Position numbers and translations under genes: made by a program
The notes under the pieces: model-generated
Databases searched by the model: none
The model's input: the letters and a program-made list of their open reading frames with translations, nothing else
Told to the model about the DNA's origin: nothing
Source of the DNA: Spirogloea muscicola
Taxonomy: Eukaryota
Direction: 5' to 3'
Assembly (NCBI GenBank): GCA_009602725.1
Contig: WELB01000003.1
Span: forward strand, 1,496,262-1,530,622
Length of the DNA stretch: 34,361 bases
Shown: one piece after another, positions 3,481-26,224 of the stretch
Layout: every line of letters starts with the position of its first letter
Numbering within the stretch: position 1 is the stretch's first letter

Positions 3481-3948
3481 CAGTCATACCTTGTTATAGG
3501 CACGTCGGCCGGTTTGGCGAAAATATGTGACTATATCGAGGGTGTGCTTGTTCGTTGTAGAGGCACTATTGCCCCCAAATGTGCTTCTACCGTGACAATC
3601 AGCAACATATCAAATTATATTGAAAGATGGCTTTTTGGGTTCAGGTTTAGGGTTAGGGTTTAAAAACTAGACCCTAACCCTAGACCTAAACCCTAAACCC
3701 CACACCCTAAACCCTAAACCTCAGCCCTAATCCCTGTAGAGAATATGAGAGATATGTTGATTTGTTTTCATATTGGCACTTCTAGTGGGGGAATCTGCCC
3801 CGTAAAACTGTGCCTGTACATAACGGCACGTTCCCTTATCGAGTCACATTTGCCTGGGGGAAAAAGTGCTTCCCGCAAAATGGTGCCACTATCGAGGATT
3901 TAGGGAAATGTGCCCTTATCTTGGGGTGCCTATAACGAGGTTTGACTG
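3481..3948. mobile_element. 468-bp MITE, pogo/Tc1-mariner type
   Basis: 23-bp terminal inverted repeats: CAGTCATACCTTGTTATAGGCAC (3481-3503) versus the reverse complement of 3926-3948, CAGTCAAACCTCGTTATAGGCAC (21/23 match). TA flanks both ends (3479-3480, 3949-3950). Weaker sub-terminal inverted similarity is present and no ORF is evident. Confidence 0.85.
3633..3735. repeat. Degenerate interstitial telomeric repeats, inverted (TTTAGGG-like then CCCTAAA-like)
   Basis: G-rich units at 3633-3661 (tttagggttagggttt) face C-rich units at 3671-3735 (ccctaaaccc...ccctaaaccctaaacc). Confidence 0.85.
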
Positions 3949-4512: not shown

Positions 4513-7500
4513 TCATACAATCTGACCCACATTGCGCATGAGCATGACGCGGGTCTCCGTCATGTCCTCCATGGCGTACCGCAGGCCCTCGCGGCCCAGC
4601 CCCGAGTCTTTCACGCCGCCGTATGGCTGCCATCGAGAGCAACACAAGGGGCATCAAGCTCTGCAGACATGTGGGGCCCTATACGTGTTTGCAGCTTTGG
4701 CAGGATGCACACACTGTAGCACAAACACTCGAGTCATCAACGCTCACTTGCGAGTCAATGCGCATGCTTGGCACATCGTTGATGCACACGCCGCCAACAT
4801 CAAGGTGCTCAAATGCATAGAAGGTCTTGTTCAGGTCCCTGGTGAACACTCCAGCCTGCAGTGCTCACCGGAGCTTGGCTGTTAACAGAACATAGTGACT
4901 TGGAGGTCGCTGCCACAGGGCCTCGACTTTGGTTGGTTCACTTAAAGAATACACTGATAATATTCACACATCCTTAAAGCGACCTTCAGCGTGGCCACAA
5001 GGATGAGGAGACCGTAAACAGGACTGGCCTTTTTACGACACCCAAGACAGCGCATCGATTACCTGGAGCCCAAACTTTGAGGCATTAACATCGTTGATTG
5101 TAGTTACGAAGTCGTCGTAAGGAATGAGCACCACCACGGGCCCAAAGACCTCCTCGCAGTGGACCTGCGCAAATACGATGCAAGACAATTGTCTACATCA
5201 GCTCCTTGAGCTGGCCAGCGAGCTAGGAACAGTCATTCGTGGAAGTTCAGTGCACTCTCTAGTCCAATCAGGGTTGTGGAGTGTACTAAGGCACGGCTGC
5301 ATGCTGGTCAGGTAGAGTCTGTGCACATCATTTGAAGCACTACCTTCACAGACAGACGAGTGCTCACCTCCATGTCAGGCCTCACATTCTCCATGACGGT
5401 TGCCTTGTAGAAGACGCCGTCGCGTTTGCCACCTATCAGGACTCTGTTGTGGGGAAACGGTGGCAAACCACATGAGCTACAGATGTGTTGTCAGCAGAGA
5501 CGGCACAATGCATGAGCCGTAGAAAGGAGAGGTAAGGCCTCCTTGTTTTGGCAAGAGTTGCTAGGGTGTAGTGGTTACCGCGCCCCATTCTCAACTGCGT
5601 GGTCCACCCACTGCTCGATACGCTTGGCCTCTGACTCGGCAATTATTGGGCCTATAAATGTCTCCTCCTCTAGTGGGTCCCCCTGAGACAAGTGCTCAGC
5701 AGTCTCAGAAGGGCCTCGTGGCAATGTACTTTTTGAGTGAGAAATATCATAAGAGTGATGTGTTTACACCATCGTGTTACACGACATTTGGCTCGCATCC
5801 ACTTTCAGCAAGTGAGACAGCACTTGCTGACTTCATCATACCTCTTTGAGCTGCGAGACTGCCTCAGTCAGCGCCCCTTTCACCGTCTCATAAAGGTTCT
5901 GCATAGGCAGAGCAATGAGGAGGATCTCAGTGGCACGGATATGGATTCCTTTTCGTTCCTGAGTGGGTGTCCTCTATCACACAAAGTGACGCCCTATTGC
6001 CTCATTGCCTGATGCATCTCTAGTTTCTGCTTTCCGCTGGTACCATTGCAAGCTCGTGAGATGGACAAGGCAAACTGCACGATTTACAGTCAAATTAGTG
6101 ATAGTTGAAAGTCTGTCATGCCTTCTTGATGTATATCCGCTGCACGCTGATGCACGACTGCCCACTCTGGTAGAAACCACCGTGCACAATGCGTGCAATT
6201 ACACCGCCAAGGTCAGGCACTAGCTCCTGTCACACCAGCAGAACAATGCATAAGCAGGTTAATCAAATGACAGCAGAAAGCAAGACTAATTACCTGCTGA
6301 AATGGAAGCAGGGTGGGTCTGAGCCCTTGTAAGTAGTCATCTCTGCTATTGATGTTGCTTGGGTAGCAAAACAGTGCTGAGGATGGCTGAGCCTTTAGCA
6401 AAGTGGGAAGCATACGTCAACAATGCAGGCAGCATTGCCGCCCAGCTCTAGCACCACTTTTTTCTTTCCAGCTCGAGCCTTCATAGCCCACCCAACCTGT
6501 TGCGGACAAGCCATATCAATATGTTAGGTGAAACCACGTCAGGTAGGTATCAGCATAGAATTGGGCACTGAGTCTCTCCAGGGGGCATTGCAAAACCTGG
6601 CAGCAACACAGCACGGCGATGCAATTGCAGAGAGAGAGAAGAGCAGCTAATGAGAGACGGAACACACAGATGGGGACCCCGTGAAGGAGAGGAGCTTGAA
6701 TCTATCGTCCGTTGTGAAGAGATCAGCTCCATCTCTAGCGCATGGGAGGATGGAAAATGCTCCTTCCGGCAGGTTCGCACGCGACAGGATCTCTCCGAGA
6801 AGAAGTGCCCCGATGGGCGTACGGCTGCAAGCCAGCGGCAAAGCGGCAAAGCGGCAACAAGGATAAGGAATCATCTCACGGAAGTTGGCGTTCAGCTGAT
6901 GCTCATGAAACCAGGTCAATGTGGTTAAGCCCCAAGCCTGCATGAAGGTGGCAGTCCGCACCTAGCAGGCTTCATCACGAACGGGCAGCCGACAGCAAGC
7001 GCCGGGGCAATTTTGTGAGCAGCCTGAAAAGCAGATGATCAGCAGTCAGAGCATTGCAGCTGCGTGTGACAATCTCACAATGTAGCACATTGATTGCCTG
7101 CAATCAACTCAATGCCACATGAGACAGGAGGATCCTTGCGGCTCGCTTAGCGACGGGCCCAAGGGCTTACCAGATTGAGGGGGAAGTTGAACGGGCTGAC
7201 CATGCTGATGGGGCCTATCGGGAACCTCCGCACCTGTCAGCAAAATGTGCAGGGCTCCACCCAATCACGCCACCAGCAATCAGGATGCAATTCATGGCAC
7301 AATTACCAGGTCTGACAGCATCGCACCATGTCTTCAGTCACACAACTTGGAAACCGTGGGCTGTTCCTGCATACTGTAAGGCATGCACCAAAGATAGCAG
7401 CTTACCAAGGACTGGTAACCCTTTGCTCTTTCTGAAATGTCTATGGGGGCATACTCGCCATACCTTCACCTCAGCACAAGCAGGAGTAGTGTCAGACCCA

Positions 7501-8477
7501 TATGTCATTTCTCCGGGATGCAGCGAGAAGGTCAGCATGTCCCAGAAGTATTTCTATTTGCTGGCGGTGAGGAGACAGCTTGCATGCACAACTATTGCCT
7601 TGGGCCTTGATTGGACACAACTTGGACTGGGCACGGCTAATCCACAGTATAAAGCTAGGATAGCTGGACTGCGTCAATGGCCATGGGCAACAAGGACTGG
7701 TGCTTGCTTACATACGGACGCTCTCCTCTGCAGCAATCTGGAAGGTGTCAATGAGCCTCTGCACCTCTCCTCTTGAGTCCCTATTGATCATGAACGAAGT
7801 GCACAATTAGTAGCCAATTAAATTATCACTTGGTGAATTTGTTATGCCCAATCTGATGGTCCACTCTTTCTGGGAAGGCTTTATGCAATCTTCAGAGAAT
7901 GAGCACCAAGTACCTCGAAGCGTCAACCCAACAGGACCTGCTGAGAGCAGGGCCGGTAAGGGCAGCGGGCTACCTGATGGGCTTTCCAGCCTCCATGCAG
8001 AGGGCCTTGGCAAACTCCTCCGACCTCGCCTTCACCTCCCTCACAACCATCTCACAGACCGCCTTGCGCTCGTAGCTGGCCATGGCTGCCATTGCAGGCG
8101 CAGCCCGCTCTGCCGCTGCAATGGCCTCCTCAATGTCCGCTGCATGCGCCAGGGCGCACCTCGCGCCCACCTTGCCTGTTCCAATGGATATGGATGCTCA
8201 TGGGTGTGGCTACATGAAGCAGAAAAGCTTGACAACAATCTCACCTCTAGTAGCAAAGATAACACACAGAGGAAGTGAAGCTGTGAACGTATGTAAGAAG
8301 ACCGAGAGCACATGTGACACACTTCAGCCAGCTTGTGTTGAGCCTGAGTGTGACAAAGTAGGCAGTTCTGGAGCATAACAAAGAGGAAAGACATAGCACT
8401 AACTCACCCGTGTACTTGTTAGTGACCTCCAGGTCTGTGTTGGGCTGCTTGGCGACGTTAGCGATGTAGAACGGGTA
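4513..8477 (-). other. ALDH21: C-terminal domain of the fusion: ALDH21-type aldehyde dehydrogenase
   Basis: YPFYIAN...[52 protein letters not shown] (catalytic Glu), [13 protein letters not shown] (catalytic Cys), [34 protein letters not shown] is certain; the family-21 call rests on recalled sequence similarity. Confidence 0.85.
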
Positions 8478-11400
8478 TGTGGTGACCTCCGACTCTGAGG
8501 TGCTCGCTTCTGCCCTTGGCGGAGCTGCACTCTGGTGCTCAGAGGCCCCTTCCTTGCTCGCAGATTGCAGCATGCCGAACTCCGCCGAGGACACCTTGAC
8601 TGGCGCTTCAGCCTTCGCGGGGCCAGTGTTGTCTGTCAACAAAGGGGCCCCACCAGGGTGCGGGACGTCCGCAGACTTCTCGCCCGTGTTGATGTCCGCC
8701 TCGTCGTCCTTGCGCGCCGGGACGGAGGTGAGCGTCGAGCCGCAGATGGCTGGGACAGCTGCCACCTCCTTGAGCTTACCGTTGAGGACCTGCACATGAT
8801 ACCGCCGGTCGGCAGCCATGATAAGACATGCTGTGAAGGTCTCACAGATCAAGTAAGTGATATCGACCACAAGTATGATCACGGTCATTCTTCATATGGG
8901 GTTTTGGCAATGGCAGCCAGATTGATGACTAGATCTCACGTTAGCCTGCACGTGGTCCTTGCGGACGAGCCCAGGCAGCTCCTTGTCAAGCACCTCATTG
9001 TCCTCAGTGTAGTCAACCGGGACCTGCTTGCAGCAGCTCAGCGCTGAGCTTAAGCACACAATTGTATGCAGGCAGGCACAGTACACAGCAAGAGCAGAAC
9101 ATGACATAATAGACGGCAATAGACGAGCCAAGTCCGAGACCGACCTCAATGAGCTTGACGCCAGGTAAGACGTCAAGGCACTGGTGCAGGATCTCGAGGA
9201 ACTCGTCCGCCTTGGTCACACGGAAGCCCTTGGCTCCGTAGCTGGTGGCTCACAGTGCCCTCGCCATAGTCAAACACCGAAAACAGCCGGCCAGCAGGAC
9301 ATATTCCGAGGTCATGTAGATCAATCATGTCAACCGCTATTCCTGGGTGAGGTGTGGAGACAGGGGCCCACCTGTTGGCATATGCGACAAAGTCGGGGTT
9401 GTCCAGTTCCAAACCGAATCTACCAATCACCATTTCCACCAATGCAAGGAAAGGGGCAGTCAGCTCACAAAGTTCAGTGGCAGGCTAAGTAGGGAGACTA
9501 TTAGAGTGGTTGAGGACGCAATGTTGAAATATTCAAGTATGGCCCCAAAAGAAGGACATGCCAATCTTCACATGGACCCCGCTTAGCCTGCCCGCGCCGC
9601 GACCCACAAGGGCACAATTCTATCCAAGTTTGAAGGGCTCCGCACTTGTTGAACCCCGCCGCATGCTGCTTCCACTTGATCATGCCGTAGCCATTGTCGT
9701 TGATGACAATTACAGTCATGTTGAGCTTGATTCTGACCGCAGTCTCCAGCTCCTGTTAACCAGGGGTAATTGTCAGAATTCACAAATGAGGTGACATAAG
9801 CTAATTTTGGACAAGATATCTGTGACCACGTGAATTGGAATCATGACTACTCGAAGAACAGTAGTTAAGTAGAATGGTCATATAGTTATTCCACTGTGAC
9901 TGTCCCTGGCTCCACCATCCTTCCACATTCTGAAGCTTGAGGAAGCTTACGAGGCCCTTCGAAGAAGCTTACACGGCTTCGGCCTCGTACAATGCATGCG
10001 CACCTGCGAATTCATCATGAAACCTCCGTCGCCGCATACAGCCACCACCTTTTTCTCTGGGTAGAGCAGCGAGACAGCCATTGCCGAGGGCAGACCGGCG
10101 CCCATTGTGGCGAGTGCGTTGTCAAGCAAAAGAGTGTTTGGTTGATAGGCCTGTCAAGCACCTCCTTGCTTCCTCAGTACGGTGAATGATTCTTGAAGCC
10201 CATTGGATATAGTGACTGGCAGAATAACTATAGAAGGCATTGCAGGACTTGAGACATCCTAAAGTCAAAGCCTGTCTCGTCTTCGTCAAGCTCTTCTGTA
10301 GGTACCATGTGGAGCGAGCAGCACTGATCCAGAAGCCTTGTGGTTCACACTGCACCAACCTTGTAGCAGCGTGCAAAGTAGATCTTGTACATGCCTGCAT
10401 TAGAGAGAGCAAGATGATGCAAAGGGTGATCAAACGCAGACCAGCCTGCTGCCTGCTCCAGTAACAAGGATCTCTAGCATCTCCAGATGGGGACATCATA
10501 CCACGAAGCAGTGCTCAAATGGCGAACCCACTGGTCTAGAATAAGCCAGCAAGCCATGTCTGCACTTAGTGTCACAATGGACAGAAGGAGATGTGAAACC
10601 CGCTTACCGTTGTCCAGACAGGCGACACCATCATCTGGGAGTGCTCTCCTGCGCAGGTTGATGTGGAAAAACTTAGCGCACGCATGTTGTCTTGAGGACC
10701 AACGTGAACTTGGACTCGCAGGAGGACCAGGAAATACACTGGTGAGTCCAAAGCTAGGTAAGTCGAGATAAAATGCTGTGAAGATAAGCACCTCACGTCG
10801 GCCACAACACGCTGTGGGGAGAGGGGAAAGGCCGGGTTGTCAACATTTTTGCGCAGCGAGTCCTCAAAGTCCTTCTTCACCTGCGCGTTGGTCCCAGAAA
10901 AGGTAACCTTCAGAGGTCAAGCTTAAAAGCTAAGCTTGCAGCTGCATATGGAGTCTAAGCTTGAACCTTATAACCTGCACCCGTGATACTTAGAATCATA
11001 ACACTGCAAGGCTGTGCTGGGTAAAGGGGGAGGCAGGCAGCAGCTTGACAACAGTCTCGGAACTCTATTGGCTGGCACAGGATGTCCAGGTCCACTCACG
11101 CCCATCATGAAGGAATGGTCCCAGTGGCTCTGGGGCTCCAGGCGATTTGTGAGCTGCCAGACGGCGTTGGCGATGTCGCCAACAACCTCCAGCTGCGGGA
11201 AGTAGACGTTGTCTACCTTGGCGCTGTAGAAGTTCACGTGTATCACCATTGGCGGCTCGTTGTGCCTGAAGCTCCCATCAAGTCACAATGGTGGCCGTCA
11301 CAATATGAATTGGAAGACAATACAACTTCTTCCCAATATATCTCAGGCAGTTAGCTCCTGCTGGATGGACCTCTCTGGATCCAAGAGGGAGGTGTGCTGG

Positions 11401-13232
11401 CTTAAGAGGGTGGCCATTGCCTCATAATGAAGGGCGGCTTCTCGACGACGTCATGGCCAATGTTGATGATGAGATCCGCAGTCTCGCAGCACAGATGCGG
11501 GAAGTCGTTGGCGGACAGCGCGCAGCAGCCAAGGCACAGCGGGTGCGAATCTGCGCACGCTCAGTCAGTGCCGCCCACCAGGATCCTTCAGCTCACATGG
11601 CTAAGTAAACTGGTCTTCATGCACGCTGCAGGATCGCAGGCTTTCTTGATGCGTGAGTTAGCCGTGGCAGAGTCCCTGTGCCAGCTTATGTGGAAAGGAA
11701 AGTGGTCAGCGAGGCATCACCTGGGACGACGCCCTTGCCCATCTGCGTTGTGACAAAGGGAACGCCGAGCTTGTCGACGAACTGCCTCAGCCTGCCGCCA
11801 TCAGCACTCACCGCAGCAAAAGTGAGCGCCCTCTTCGTGACAGCCTTAAGGCCAAGGGCGCGTCCCACTCAGGCATTGCTTAGTATCCAGCTTGAAGCAG
11901 CAAGAAGCTTAATATCACTGCAGACTGGATATACCATACCCCATGAGAAAGACTCGACGGTGAGCTACTACTTGGTAGCAGTTCCACTGTGAGCTTATCA
12001 CCTCGTAACCTGCTTTGACAATGACCTTTCTTCAATGCAGACATGCATTGAAAGCTTGAGCTTGGTTGAGGAGCCGACCGGACGCCTTAGAGCTTAGCTG
12101 CAGTATGGCTGCAGCAACATACATCTTTTGGGTGAGTTTGCGGTTGGCGCCGGCGCCAATGAGGAGCAGCGGGCGCTGGGCGGCCTCGATCATCGCGACA
12201 GCCTTAGCAATGGCCTTCTCCTCGGCGACGGGCCGCCGAACCTGGTGCACCGGAAAGAGCTCGGCGTTGGTGAGCGTGCTTGCAATGTCCTCTGGGAGCT
12301 CTAGGTGCACCGCCCCGGGCCGCTCCTCCATGGACAGCCGCGCCGCCTCTCGTACGAGCGACGGCACCAGGTCGCCGTCGGCAATCTGCCGCGTATACTG
12401 CAGCAGGAGAAGCAGGCCGGCCGACGGCTTCAATTCAGGCCCACAGTCACCCGAGCCACTGATGCAAGTTCTCTGAGGTGCACAAGTGGGAAGTGCAAGC
12501 AGTTTGCTTATCAAGTCAATGTACATTTAACACTAGTTGAGCGTCAGACGTAAATTGGTGGAATTCGAGGGTGGTAGCACCTCGCACCTTGGTGATGGGT
12601 CGCAGATTCTCAACAATGTCTACGATCTGAAATGAGCCCTGCTTGCTCTTCCGTATTGGCTTCTGACCCGTAATCATCATCTGCGCTCGTCTCACCAGCC
12701 AAAGTATGTTAGGGGTGTCAGGGCGACGAGGAGAGCCGTCGCCGCACTGATGCAATGTGGCCGTCTCAGCTTGGCGCGGCAGCCAGCAAGGTGCTCGAGT
12801 TGAGGTGGGGGGCCGACCATGGGGAAGCCGGCAAGCTGAGCATAAGCAGCGGCGGTTGTGAAATTGGTCGCGCCGGGACCGAGCGTGGAGAGGCAGACGC
12901 CGCACTGGCCTGTCAGGCGGCCAACGGTGGCGGCCATGAAGCCCGCCGCCTGCTCGTGCCGCGTCACAATCAGCTTGATGGTCGAGGTCTGCAGCGAGTC
13001 CAGAAGGTCCATGTTCTCCTCGCCGGGGATGCCAAAAATGTACCTGCACCATTGCTTTCACGCGGCATGGAGCAGCTCAGCATGCCGCCTGCAGAACTTT
13101 GGGCAGCAGGCATTCGTGGGCAACGAGAGCGGCGAGCAGGAGCAGTGTGAGCGCGCTCCCGACTCACTCGATGCGCTCGTTCTCCAGGGCCTTGACGAAC
13201 ACGTCCGACGTCTTGCGCTTATCGCCACCCAT
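4513..13232 (-). CDS. Fusion protein: ThDP-dependent acetolactate-synthase-like (2-oxoacid decarboxylase) enzyme + linker + ALDH21-family aldehyde dehydrogenase; 30 exons, 1137 aa
   Basis: Exons: 13232-13168, 13043-12818, 12680-12588, 12397-12123, 11791-11721, 11550-11421, 11265-11100, 10880-10792, 10648-10608, 10394-10360, 10150-10004, 9752-9646, 9419-9372, 9241-9145, 9023-8940, 8789-8408, 8175-7974, 7780-7712, 7463-7406, 7233-7171, 7023-6962, 6824-6668, 6496-6416, 6226-6122, 5898-5842, 5682-5579, 5443-5368, 5164-5063, 4855-4748, 4626-4513. They sum to 3414 nt, every phase is compatible and there is no internal stop. Confidence 0.85.
8940..13232 (-). other. N-terminal domain of the fusion: bacterial-type acetolactate synthase large-subunit-like ThDP enzyme
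   Basis: [42 protein letters not shown] (catalytic Glu), [32 protein letters not shown], ThDP motif [15 protein letters not shown]...[11 protein letters not shown], and IEVPVDY. Confidence 0.92.
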
Positions 13233-13706
13233 GGCTGCGCGCTGCCCACAGCTAGAAGTGGTGGGCAACGAAGTGTTTCCGGCAGGTCGGAGTGCGAGCC
13301 GGGGCCTTGTTGCCTGAAAGCTGCGGAGCTTTATGCAGGAGCAGAGGTGAGGAAGAGGTAGGAGACGAAGACTGGTGCGGGCAGCTGCACAAGGAACTCG
13401 TCCACTGTAAGTGATGGAGAAAGCAATGCTGGTTCTGGAGAGGGGCTGGGAAACAGACGAGGGCGAGCGGAGTCTACGGAAGCAAGACCTGCCTGCTCAG
13501 CCAGCATAGGCAATCGGAAAAGATCGTGTATTAGAAAGAAATGTAGGCCAAATGGCCAGGTACAAAGGCAAGCACACAGCATAGGCAATCAGGATTCCGG
13601 CGAGCTGCTGACGGTATTACTTTACCAAGTGCAACCCATGTAATATGAAGGAATATGTGATAAGAGAGGCATACTGTTACCTCGAGCGGCTTCAGACGGG
13701 GGTCGT

Positions 13707-14170
13707 AGAAGGTGCTCGCCCATTGAGAAGAGGGGCTGGCAAAGCCAACCCAAAAAGAATGGACAATGTTCAAAGCCAAAGAAAGAGGTGCTGAAAAAGG
13801 ACTTCACTACAAAGTGCAAGATGGTGCAGAGGGAGATGCAGATGGCTGCTCAGTATCCACGTGTGAGCAACAGCAGATCAGAGTCGTAGGACTGGTTGCT
13901 AAGGCCGTGATCAACTTTCCCGGCCCTCATTACCGGCCCCTCTTCTCAATGGGCGAGCACCTTCTTCATTACCACCCCTGTCCTTCTTTCTTTCTTTCTT
14001 TCTTTCTCCTGTCATCCCTTCTGCCACTGCTGCTGCCCCACTCACCCCGCAGCTCCAGCAGTGGTCGTTTGATGGGTCAACAAGGCCCCCTTATCTTTGC
14101 GCTAGTTTTTGTCTGAACAATGTATTGGCTTGAATTGGCCTCGCTTATATTTCATGCGCGCCTTCTCTCC
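13707..14170. repeat. Cluster of dispersed-repeat fragments matching the 3' regions of the elements at 22575-24000
   Basis: 13731-13783 matches 23315-23367 (ggggctggcaaagcca[a/g]cccaaaaagaatggacaatgt[t/c]caaagcc). 14096-14170 matches the reverse complement of about 22722-22800 (tttgcgctag...ctgaacaatgtatt[g/a]gcttg[a/c]attggcctc). A 30-bp perfect inverted repeat lies at 13707-13736 / 13936-13965. Confidence 0.8.
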
Positions 14171-24395: not shown

Positions 24396-26224
24396 GTTCT
24401 CGAGCCAGAGCACAGGCCTGCTGCCGCTGACGGTCAAGCGCATGGCCACGGCGGCGCCCAAGGGCGCGGCCGACGAGTCCTTCTCCATCGACGGCCAGGA
24501 CATCAACGCCGTGAGCCCGCCGACGCCGCCGACGCCGCCGCCGCCGCCACCGCCGCCGCCGCCGCTTACCTCTGGCAGTCTGCCGCGTCTGCTGGCATGC
24601 CCACGTTGCCGCTGCTGCACAGCATGGAGCTGGGCTACAGCAGCTGCGGCGTGTATGGCAGGTCACGGTGGTGGGGCGCGTGCTGTCTCGCGAGGACAAG
24701 GCCACAGACACCACCTTCCTGCTCAACGACGGCACTGGCCAGATCGAGGTCAAGCGCTGGTACTGCCGCCACCGCCGCCGCCGCCGCCGCTGCGCCGCCG
24801 CCGCTGAGCAGCGCATGGTGGCTTGGTGCTCAACTCGCACCTCAGGGCTGTTTTGACGCGAAACACTGAGGGTCGCGGCTAATGGTGCTGCCAGGAACAA
24901 TGGTGAGGACATCGGCGAGGGCCAGGACCTGGCTGCCATCCAGTAAGCGAGACTGAGGCACGGCACCGAGCGCGCGCGGCGCCCACCGCTGCCGCGGCCA
25001 CTGCCGCCGTCCCCTGCCACTGCTTGTCCGCTTGGCTAGTGGCGGTGGCCCCCCTTCTCTGACTTCACCAGCATGGCCGCCGTCGACTGTCGGTTGCAGG
25101 ATTGGGGCCTACGTCCGTGTGCACGGCCACTTGCGTGTCTTCCAGGGCCGCAAGTACCTCGTTGCTTTCTGCGTCAGGTCCAGGCACCTTTCCCGCCAAT
25201 CCTTGAGAGTATCAGAACATCTTATGTCAATGATCACTTGACTCTGATAAAACTGGTCAATCTCAACAACTACTGATAGTCCTTCTCCTTCACGAGGAAT
25301 TCTTGTTTGTAGTGTCCGTCTCGGCGGCACTTGACGGTACCGTGCTTGGTCATGCAGGTCCGTTACGGACTTCAACGAGGTCACGTTTCACAATCTCGAG
25401 TGCATATTTGTGCACCTTGCCGCTTCGGCGCCGGCTGCACAGGTGAATATTGGCCTGTCACGCTACTGAAGCTGCTGCTGCACCAGCCTCTGCAGGAAGC
25501 CTGAGCTGCCGCCCTTTGCTGCCGCTGCCACTTGTGACTGTCTTGCAGCCCTCTGCCGCTGTTGGTGCGTCCGACGGACCTTACGCGAGGCCGCCACCGT
25601 ATGCTGCCACGCCGGTCAACCCTGTCAGCGGCGCCGGCGCCGGCATGGGCGATGGGCAGGGCATGGATGACGTCCAGAAGGTCGTCCTTGGTTTCTACGA
25701 GAACCCCAAGAACGCGTGAGTGGTTGCCACCTTTCCGCCACCATCGAGTCTGTCCTTCATGGCCACCATCAGTAAAGCCAACCCCATGGTAAAGGTGTCG
25801 TTGCCGCGGGCTTTGGCACGGATGACTTGAGTAAGCTCTGCAAGAGATTGTTAAGAAGCAGCGAGGGGTGACGGCGCGTCAAGTCTGCCGTGGCTCATAC
25901 AGGGAGAAGGAGCAGGGCATCTCGTGGATGGAAGTGGCGGGCTCGATCCCAGGTTACAGCAGGGCGCAGATCAAGTACAGTCCCCTCGCGCTCTCCTTGC
26001 CACCATCTGCAGCAGCAGGAGGCTGACTAGCCCTCTCCGCATGCCACCTCCTGCGTGACAAGCGATGGACAACCCTCTGAGGCACTGGGCAGGGCCTGTT
26101 TCCGATCACCCGGCATTGGCCCCTGCGCTTGCGCGTATGCAGAGCTGCGGTCGACTTCCTGGTCAACGAGGGCCAGCTGTACTCCACGATCGACGACAAC
26201 CACTTCAAGTGGACCGGCGCCTGA
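24284..26224 (+). CDS. RPA2: Replication protein A 32-kDa subunit, 8 exons; apparent frameshift in exon 1
   Basis: Exons 24284-24510, 24662-24759, 24895-24942, 25100-25177, 25358-25442, 25549-25715, 25903-25974, 26143-26224. Motifs GLLPLTVK, FLLNDGTGQIEVKRW, YVRVHGHLR, VTDFNEVTFHNLECIFVHL and the winged-helix end AVDFLVNEGQLYSTIDDNHFK. Confidence 0.93.

Follow-up and report, generated by a model that had tools for sequence, protein, structure and literature searches.

A Spirogloea muscicola gene fuses a thiamine diphosphate enzyme to ALDH21 and is predicted to encode a 2-oxoglutarate decarboxylase/succinic semialdehyde dehydrogenase

Does a single gene join a bacterial-type thiamine diphosphate (ThDP) enzyme to the aldehyde dehydrogenase (ALDH) ALDH21 in one polypeptide, and what would such a protein do? 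The locus that raises this question lies on the minus strand (13232..4513) of a 34,361-nt stretch of Spirogloea muscicola DNA (assembly GCA_009602725.1, contig WELB01000003.1, positions 1,496,262 to 1,530,622 of the forward strand), hereafter the window, from whose first letter all positions are counted. An earlier note, made from the sequence letters, had proposed that 30 exons join in frame to 1137 aa with both sets of catalytic motifs intact. Joining the exons by coordinates bears this out: the coding sequence is 3414 nt, giving 1137 aa and a TGA, no internal stop codon was found in the 30 joined exons, and the motifs are intact in the ThDP half (E52, GDG 437-439, N464, D465) and in the ALDH half (E906, C941, E1035). 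The 29 introns measure 121-331 nt, 27 of them GT-AG and two GC-AG (11420-11266 and 6121-5899). Nine of the 11 exon fragments scanned match Pfam, with TPP_enzyme_N/M/C upstream of the junction and Aldedh downstream; the last ThDP exon and the linker exon were the two fragments with no Pfam match. The public S. muscicola model P0001 (1129 aa) is the same protein minus eight residues at intron 24. The phase-0 junction intron (8939-8790, AAC/GTGAGA...GTGCAG/GTC) and the 382-nt exon 16 behind it have the ends and length first reported, and the linker is A/S/E/P-rich as described (A17 S12 E10 P9), its length being 102 aa rather than about 104 aa. The features are as follows, X5 being the RNA run discussed below.

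4513..13232, minus strand: whole gene, ThDP enzyme, linker and ALDH21, 1137 aa (exon joining; match to P0001; X5 splicing)
8940..13232, minus strand: exons 1-15, ThDP enzyme, aa 1-558 (TPP_enzyme_N/M/C; NF006187/PRK08322)
12953..12955, minus strand: Glu52, ThDP-activating glutamate, equivalent to MaKGD Glu50 (alignment; PMC10418658, in part)
11266..11420, minus strand: intron 6, GC-AG (exon joining; same exons in P0001)
10384..10386, minus strand: Lys389, equivalent to MaKGD Lys386, a docked 2-oxoglutarate contact (alignment)
10025..10033, minus strand: GDG motif, aa 437-439, Mg-diphosphate binding, equivalent to MaKGD 434-436 (alignment)
9669..9671, minus strand: Lys474, equivalent to MaKGD Lys471, a docked salt bridge to 2-oxoglutarate (alignment)
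8790..8939, minus strand: junction intron 15, 150 nt, phase 0, GT-AG, with TGA 8894-8892 spliced out (exon joining; X5)
8484..8789, minus strand: linker, aa 559-660, 5' part of exon 16 (alignment; structure model)
4513..8483, minus strand: ALDH21 domain, aa 661-1137, end of exon 16 to exon 30 (Pfam; 5MZ5 match; Foldseek)
7756..7758, minus strand: Arg761, equivalent to PpALDH21 Arg121, succinic semialdehyde carboxylate binding (5MZ5 alignment, offset 18)
6152..6172, minus strand: Tyr935, equivalent to PpALDH21 Tyr296, to catalytic Cys941 (5MZ5 alignment)
5899..6121, minus strand: intron 24, GC-AG, missed by the public model (X5 joint 5898/6122, ends CT..GC)
4760..4762, minus strand: Arg1096, equivalent to PpALDH21 Arg457 (5MZ5 alignment)

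Five sequencing runs hold this stretch, four of which we took as DNA and one, X5, as RNA, a presumption that its spliced joints support. X5 contigs cover the exons and skip the introns at their exact ends. At the junction, the joint 8789/8940 skips exactly 150 nt (CT..AC, cut +2) with 44 letters on the shorter side, and its depth of 109.2 equals the combined depth of two allelic contigs of 147 nt; cover in the bin 8824-8900, in the middle of the intron, is zero, and X5 has no contig within the junction intron and no loose end there. Overlapping contigs link exon 11 through exon 17, introns 11-16 and 24 are spliced (introns 12 and 13 as joints 9419/9646 and 9241/9372), and the splicing of GC-AG intron 24 (5898/6122) supports the 1137-aa protein over the public 1129-aa model. 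The fusion is thus real and is expressed as one spliced transcript, and the earlier claim of a single polypeptide is upheld by the X5 joint, by full-length fused orthologues and by the NF006187 and 5MZ5 matches described below. X5 shows the very splice, 8940 to 8789, whose absence the earlier note had named as refuting its claim. X5 depth is 44-49 over ThDP exons and 74-80 over ALDH exons; contig depth cannot rank parts of a gene, allelic contigs divide it, and no conclusion is drawn from the difference.

The TGA within intron 15 was considered as a genuine stop and ruled out by this joint and by the finding that 26 of the gene's 29 introns carry an in-frame stop on read-through, which makes the TGA ordinary. 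By a leave-one-out splice-site score the junction acceptor ranks 3/29 and the donor 17/29. DNA runs X1 and X2 contain a form of the junction intron that skips 8846-8906 (61 nt, TGA included), which is another allele or gene copy.

The fusion extends well beyond this alga. A homologue search with P0001 passed 256 of 7994 candidates, of which the best 120 are listed, and the fusion counts rest on these 120. In at least 34 of them the ThDP domain is fused to an ALDH that shares 50% identity or more with the Spirogloea ALDH half; 27 of the 34 are full-length in both halves and 17 have a eukaryote source name. The streptophyte carriers are the zygnematophyte Spirogloea, the JGI model 'Mesen1' (which we take to be Mesotaenium), Psilotum, Pteridium, Ceratopteris, Adiantum (partial), two Riccia and Calypogeia; the others are the chlorophytes Bryopsis, Ostreobium, Coccomyxa and Elliptochloris, the red alga Rhodosorus, and Hondaea. 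The fused entries of Psilotum, Pteridium and Rhodosorus are named as transcript open reading frames, and the other 17 of the 34 fall among the named carriers in trees that include them. P0025 carries a fungal taxid in its header, yet the protein groups with Hondaea (100/100), and we assign it no organism. Spirogloea has two further copies, one a fused model and one an ALDH-only model (P0356, 420 aa), while Physcomitrium and Sphagnum have a stand-alone ThDP half. A second fusion, seen in at least 43 of the 120 matches (P0033-P0076, e.g. P0046 and P0055), pairs this ThDP branch with a different ALDH of about 34% identity and comes from Ca. Obscuribacter in the two clusters looked up. The fusion first seen in Spirogloea thus also occurs in other algae, liverworts and ferns, and a separate one in bacteria. 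The search of cluster representatives gave two fused clusters, P0028 and P0035, and the ESM Atlas the bacterial fusion cluster only (0.98), whose automatic name, 'benzoylformate decarboxylase', was not used as substrate evidence. The linker exon alone as query matched a single protein, P0001. Among the matches listed, P0086, P0089, P0095 and P0099 are other fusions of the ThDP branch, with additions of 2-hydroxyacid dehydrogenase domains, a glutaredoxin/GST-like N-terminus, HSP20 and a 1066-aa form.

Which aldehyde would the fused dehydrogenase oxidise? The best PDB match of the ALDH half is moss ALDH21, 5MZ5, with 630 bits (phmmer); other named ALDH families reach 276 bits or less, plant ALDH5 succinic semialdehyde dehydrogenase (SSADH) 8OF1 scoring 247 and GAPN chains 203-220. 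PpALDH21 is also Foldseek rank 1, at an identity of about 57-60%. We rejected GAPN/ALDH11, the UniRef label on several fused orthologues, because of these GAPN scores and because GAPN model NF040869 gave 284 against a cut-off of 780. ALDH21 is a cytosolic NADP-SSADH in which Arg121, Arg457 and Tyr296 bind the carboxylate of succinic semialdehyde (SSA) (bioRxiv 10.64898/2026.01.13.699213, in part). In the printed 5MZ5 alignment, at a constant offset of 18, their counterparts are R761, R1096 and Y935, which are present in 34/34, 34/34 and 32/34 eukaryote-clade rows; the same Arg/Arg/Tyr occur in 38/38, 37/38 and 36/38 bacterial ALDH21-like neighbours and, in the second bacterial fusion, in 42/42 rows (42 of 43 used, one partial excluded). 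C941, E906 and R867 are found in 34/34 rows, R867 matching PpALDH21 Arg228, a residue for the NADP 2'-phosphate. PpALDH21 (PDB 5MZ5/5MZ8/5N5S) and Syntrichia ScALDH21 are the closest relatives in sequence and structure and share the catalytic Cys/Glu and the three carboxylate-binding residues; the ALDH half is very probably an NADP-SSADH like the moss enzyme. Moss ALDH21 proteins are described as stand-alone 483-497-aa enzymes of the gamma-aminobutyrate (GABA) shunt, whereas the Spirogloea ALDH21 carries a 660-aa N-terminal ThDP enzyme plus linker.

The ThDP half scores 834.6 bits with NF006187 (cut-off 509), an NCBIfam model named 'acetolactate synthase large subunit', and falls below the cut-offs of acetolactate synthase models NF006378 (439 < 510), TIGR02418 (AlsS; 396 < 551) and TIGR00118 (AHAS; 341 < 538). 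Those members of the NF006187 family that have been characterised are cyanobacterial 2-oxoglutarate decarboxylases (KGD). Of six oxo acids tested, MaKGD acts specifically on 2-oxoglutarate, its E50A mutant is inactive, and E50, D435, D462, M410, Y465 and L467 were tested by mutation; characterised KGD members are 77-98% identical to each other (Table S1) (PMC10418658, in part). KGD stand-ins were taken from a motif scan (at least 120 stretches), in which K386 is present by construction; a plasmid search gave no cyanobacterial homologue among the 60 of 164 records listed. The stand-in used, L124, is a 550-aa metagenome protein with 17/17 numbered MaKGD residues at zero offset, and it passes NF006187 with 882 bits. 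The related L119 clusters with cyanobacterial proteins, one of them named 2-oxoglutarate decarboxylase, and adjoins a gene that scores best with an NADP-SSADH model (651 bits, below the 730 cut-off).

The Spirogloea ThDP domain keeps 12 of the 17 numbered residues. Among the mutation-tested ones E50, D435, D462, M410 and Y465 are identical and L467 is Met; among the docked 2-oxoglutarate contacts (V382, A408, L467, Q254, K386, K471) three of six are kept, both lysines included. K389 is present in 31/31, 42/42 and 80/80 rows of three row sets, and K474 in 31/31, 42/42 and 79/80. Though outside the KGD clade, the ThDP half most likely works like KGD, and we have good confidence in predicting that it is a 2-oxoglutarate decarboxylase. 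The closest solved ThDP relative, PDB 13BB (498 bits), is labelled acetolactate synthase; it shares the branch-type motif but has Met for Lys389.

Together the halves suggest a cytosolic bifunctional 2-oxoglutarate decarboxylase/NADP-SSADH in one 1137-aa protein, a function that we consider likely. The ThDP half would decarboxylate 2-oxoglutarate to SSA and the ALDH21 half would oxidise SSA to succinate with NADP+, for a net reaction of 2-oxoglutarate + NADP+ + H2O -> succinate + CO2 + NADPH that would use no CoA, lipoate or GABA. The linker may tether the active sites, such that reactive SSA would be consumed near its source, which does not imply a rigid tunnel. The linker opens with a short helix that streptophytes conserve and continues as a disordered A/S/E/P-rich stretch, with AlphaFold predicting disorder at 570-658 (pLDDT <50). 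Mean column conservation is 0.70 in the ThDP enzyme, 0.19 in the linker and 0.73 in the ALDH, and the inter-domain segment varies from 55 to 132 aa across fused orthologues; such a disordered, variable linker fits proximity rather than a tunnel. The AlphaFold model (pLDDT 75, pTM 0.53, 30 sequences) has two folds with no fixed mutual orientation, and several of its active-site loops are poor. In their relatives, both enzymes form tetramers. About 7 aa precede the ThDP core (3-17 in most fused orthologues checked, 47 in P0014), which by length argues that there is no plastid transit peptide. A cytosolic location is suggested by this absence of an N-terminal extension and by the cytosolic moss ALDH21.

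Bacterial gene neighbourhoods were surveyed in the best 80 of at least 599 genome stretches. An ALDH gene lies directly downstream on the same strand, in the order of the fusion, in 59 of these 80 loci (40 ALDH21-like, 19 other). NADP-glutamate dehydrogenase lies within 4 kb in 4/80 loci from unrelated taxa (binomial p 5e-5 to 9e-3 for an assumed background of 0.25-1%, uncorrected for choosing the family afterwards). An FMN glutamate-synthase-like gene, which could feed 2-oxoglutarate from glutamate, lies within 4 kb of the ThDP gene in four further loci and on a Leisingera plasmid (L003:2376-3974, L039:660-2291, L069:2281-3909, L033:7566-9068 and L207:4416-5924, beside the ThDP gene), and a Rhizobium copy is two genes from dctA.

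Several observations weigh against the proposed function. The branch, whose function is predicted, is a sister to KGD, the ThDP domain being 39% identical to L124 and the two falling in separate clades. V382 is replaced by N, L467 by M and Q254 by S among the docked contacts, and A384 by M, H385 by Y and H112 by F elsewhere. The two lysines rest on docking, and the pair is present in 36 of 54 wider family representatives, so it marks the family rather than the substrate. No ALDH accompanies the gene in 15/80 bacterial loci, with too little flank in 6/80, and the homologue on a Pseudomonas putida S12 plasmid (L205:5995-7638) sits in an mhp aromatic catabolism cluster without an ALDH, a possible change of substrate. 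Public sets include a Spirogloea model with the ALDH alone, P0356, and a Calypogeia paralogue with the ThDP half alone, P0078; RNA support comes from a single run kept as contigs, which lose rare isoforms; and the ALDH trees have no single eukaryote clade, which an approximately unbiased test did not reject (p=0.24).

These points bear differently on the alternatives. If the substrate were another anionic 2-oxo acid (2-oxoadipate, 4-hydroxy-2-oxoglutarate or oxaloacetate), the product would be glutarate, malate or malonate. Half of the docked contacts differ from MaKGD, K110 and K281 are near-invariant lysines in the branch where KGD has His and Tyr, and some bacterial members occur in other gene contexts, all of which would suit such a substrate; the fused ALDH, however, keeps the SSA triad and is about 60% identical to a characterised SSADH, and glutamate dehydrogenase and glutamate-synthase-like neighbours recur, so we think this unlikely. 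That the ThDP half might be a carboligase, an acetolactate synthase or acyloin-forming enzyme with the ALDH fused for detoxification or by chance, is suggested by the NCBIfam name, by AlsS as the nearest solved fold in Foldseek and by the label of PDB 13BB. The same NCBIfam name is nevertheless carried by cyanobacterial KGD-type proteins, the Spirogloea protein scores under the AlsS and AHAS cut-offs and has no plastid transit peptide, and Lys replaces the AlsS Gln at column 474 (Gln in the AlsS-type structure 9ZGL). That fusion to an ALDH arose twice separately, and that 59/80 loci pair the gene with one, points moreover to an aldehyde product, and a carboligase seems to us very improbable.

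The transcript could also be fused while the working proteins are mostly separate, by an alternative 3' end within intron 15, internal initiation or linker cleavage, with ALDH21 acting in the GABA shunt and the ThDP enzyme alone. The separate moss forms, P0356, P0078 and the disordered linker are compatible with this, but X5 has neither an intron contig nor a loose end, the X1/X2 form skips 8846-8906 with the TGA, and the reading frame stays fused in carriers ranging from red algae to ferns; we give such separation very little credence. Moss aldh21 knockouts, with about 2x GABA and glutamate and 20% less succinate (bioRxiv 10.64898/2026.01.13.699213, in part), fit either source of SSA. We continue to prefer the bifunctional decarboxylase/dehydrogenase.

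Where did the fusion come from? A ThDP tree of 57 rows (LG+G4, bacteria subsampled) unites the 31 eukaryote-clade rows with 100/99 support; this clade sits amid bacterial rows and is distinct from the KGD-type outgroup. The branch that holds the Spirogloea domain and that of the KGD stand-in are separate clades at 100/100 each. Moss stand-alone ThDP proteins nest inside the streptophyte group (100/100), and those of Sphagnum, like the Calypogeia paralogue, keep the first linker helix. Near the site of the junction donor, the sequence of Physcomitrium P0071 (XP_024366339) gives way to a divergent Cys/His-rich tail, as though translation continued into the former intron. In the ALDH trees, which have a long-branch root, bacterial ALDH21-like proteins fall among the eukaryote-clade rows. 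Moss ALDH21 was not among the 120 listed stand-alone matches (7999 best candidates scored) and is hence in no tree. A single fusion followed by splits is the simplest reading of these trees, and the fusion is probably older than the moss stand-alone ALDH21. A bacterial ThDP->ALDH21 gene pair, rather than cyanobacterial ogdA/ssaD, would have fused, probably once, and later split in mosses. The earlier statement that moss ALDH21 stands alone thus holds as a description, with the stand-alone form probably derived from the fusion.

We lean slightly towards a broader proposal, in which a cytosolic, CoA-independent, one-polypeptide shunt from 2-oxoglutarate to succinate plus NADPH would occur in many non-seed eukaryotes (zygnematophytes, liverworts, ferns, chlorophytes, a red alga and labyrinthulids) and be of bacterial, non-cyanobacterial origin. 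ALDH21 would then be ancestrally the second half of this shunt and not a GABA-shunt enzyme, moss ALDH21 would have arisen by fission, with the moss 'acetolactate synthase-like' gene as its partner, and another lineage, in bacteria, would have fused this step on its own.

A pathway of this type has been described in cyanobacteria, where OgdA/KGD and SsaD (Synechococcus PCC 7002 A2770/A2771; Synechocystis Sll1981; Microcystis MAE_06010) share with our protein the NF006187 family, the pairing with a semialdehyde dehydrogenase and the predicted route from 2-oxoglutarate through SSA to succinate (PMC5160925 and PMC10418658, each in part). The cyanobacterial bypass consists of two genes, with ogdA-ssaD an operon (PMC5160925, in part), whereas the Spirogloea protein is one eukaryotic polypeptide outside the cyanobacterial lineage in the ThDP tree. 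The partners also differ, SsaD/GabD in cyanobacteria and ALDH21 in the fusion: SsaD-like neighbours of KGD-type loci are about 30% identical to the ALDH half, and most of these rows lack the Arg121 equivalent. AlsS (Bacillus 4RJJ, Klebsiella 1OZF) and plant AHAS share the three-domain ThDP fold (TM to target about 0.89, 31% identity; Foldseek) and differ from the Spirogloea ThDP half in their model scores, in other active-site columns, in the transit peptide and in the fused ALDH. The 2-oxoglutarate decarboxylase of Euglena gracilis is mitochondrial, of the OGDH-E1 type and unrelated to the NF006187 family. Together with SSADH, as separate enzymes, it provides a eukaryotic precedent for the bypass (PMC10418658, in part).

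We found no description of the fusion in the literature covered, to which Kopecna et al. 2017 (Plant J 92:229) does not belong. The words 'fusion', 'fused', 'thiamine' and 'acetolactate' are absent from the main text of the ALDH21 preprint (bioRxiv 10.64898/2026.01.13.699213), and the parts covered of the ALDH21 distribution survey PMC13387889 and the review PMC7823795 do not mention a fusion. The fused architecture is already in public protein sets under automatic names.

A fused decarboxylase would bear on a question of compartments, as ALDH21 is cytosolic but GABA transaminase forms SSA in mitochondria (bioRxiv 10.64898/2026.01.13.699213, in part); it would be a direct source of SSA in the cytosol. 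Angiosperms have no ALDH21 (PMC13387889, in part), and if the proposal is true, algae, liverworts and ferns would possess a bypass of the citric acid cycle, and with it a supply of NADPH, that is missing in angiosperms. It would also name a candidate partner gene for ALDH21 in Physcomitrium, where aldh21 knockouts exist, suggest a likely function for a large bacterial branch labelled 'acetolactate synthase', and matter for crop studies in which only the ALDH21 half is expressed.

Elsewhere in the window, high-copy repeats with very high depth in the DNA runs flank the gene at 13409-14160 and 3500-3900, and upstream of it lie 36-nt inverted arms (13707-13742 / 13930-13965, 94% complementary), possibly a small transposon. 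A Pfam scan of 15 other open reading frame fragments of the window gave one sub-threshold OB-fold match only, at 24515-24853 on the plus strand (22 bits, below cut-off), which follows a Gly-rich start in a fragment that to us resembles RPA32.

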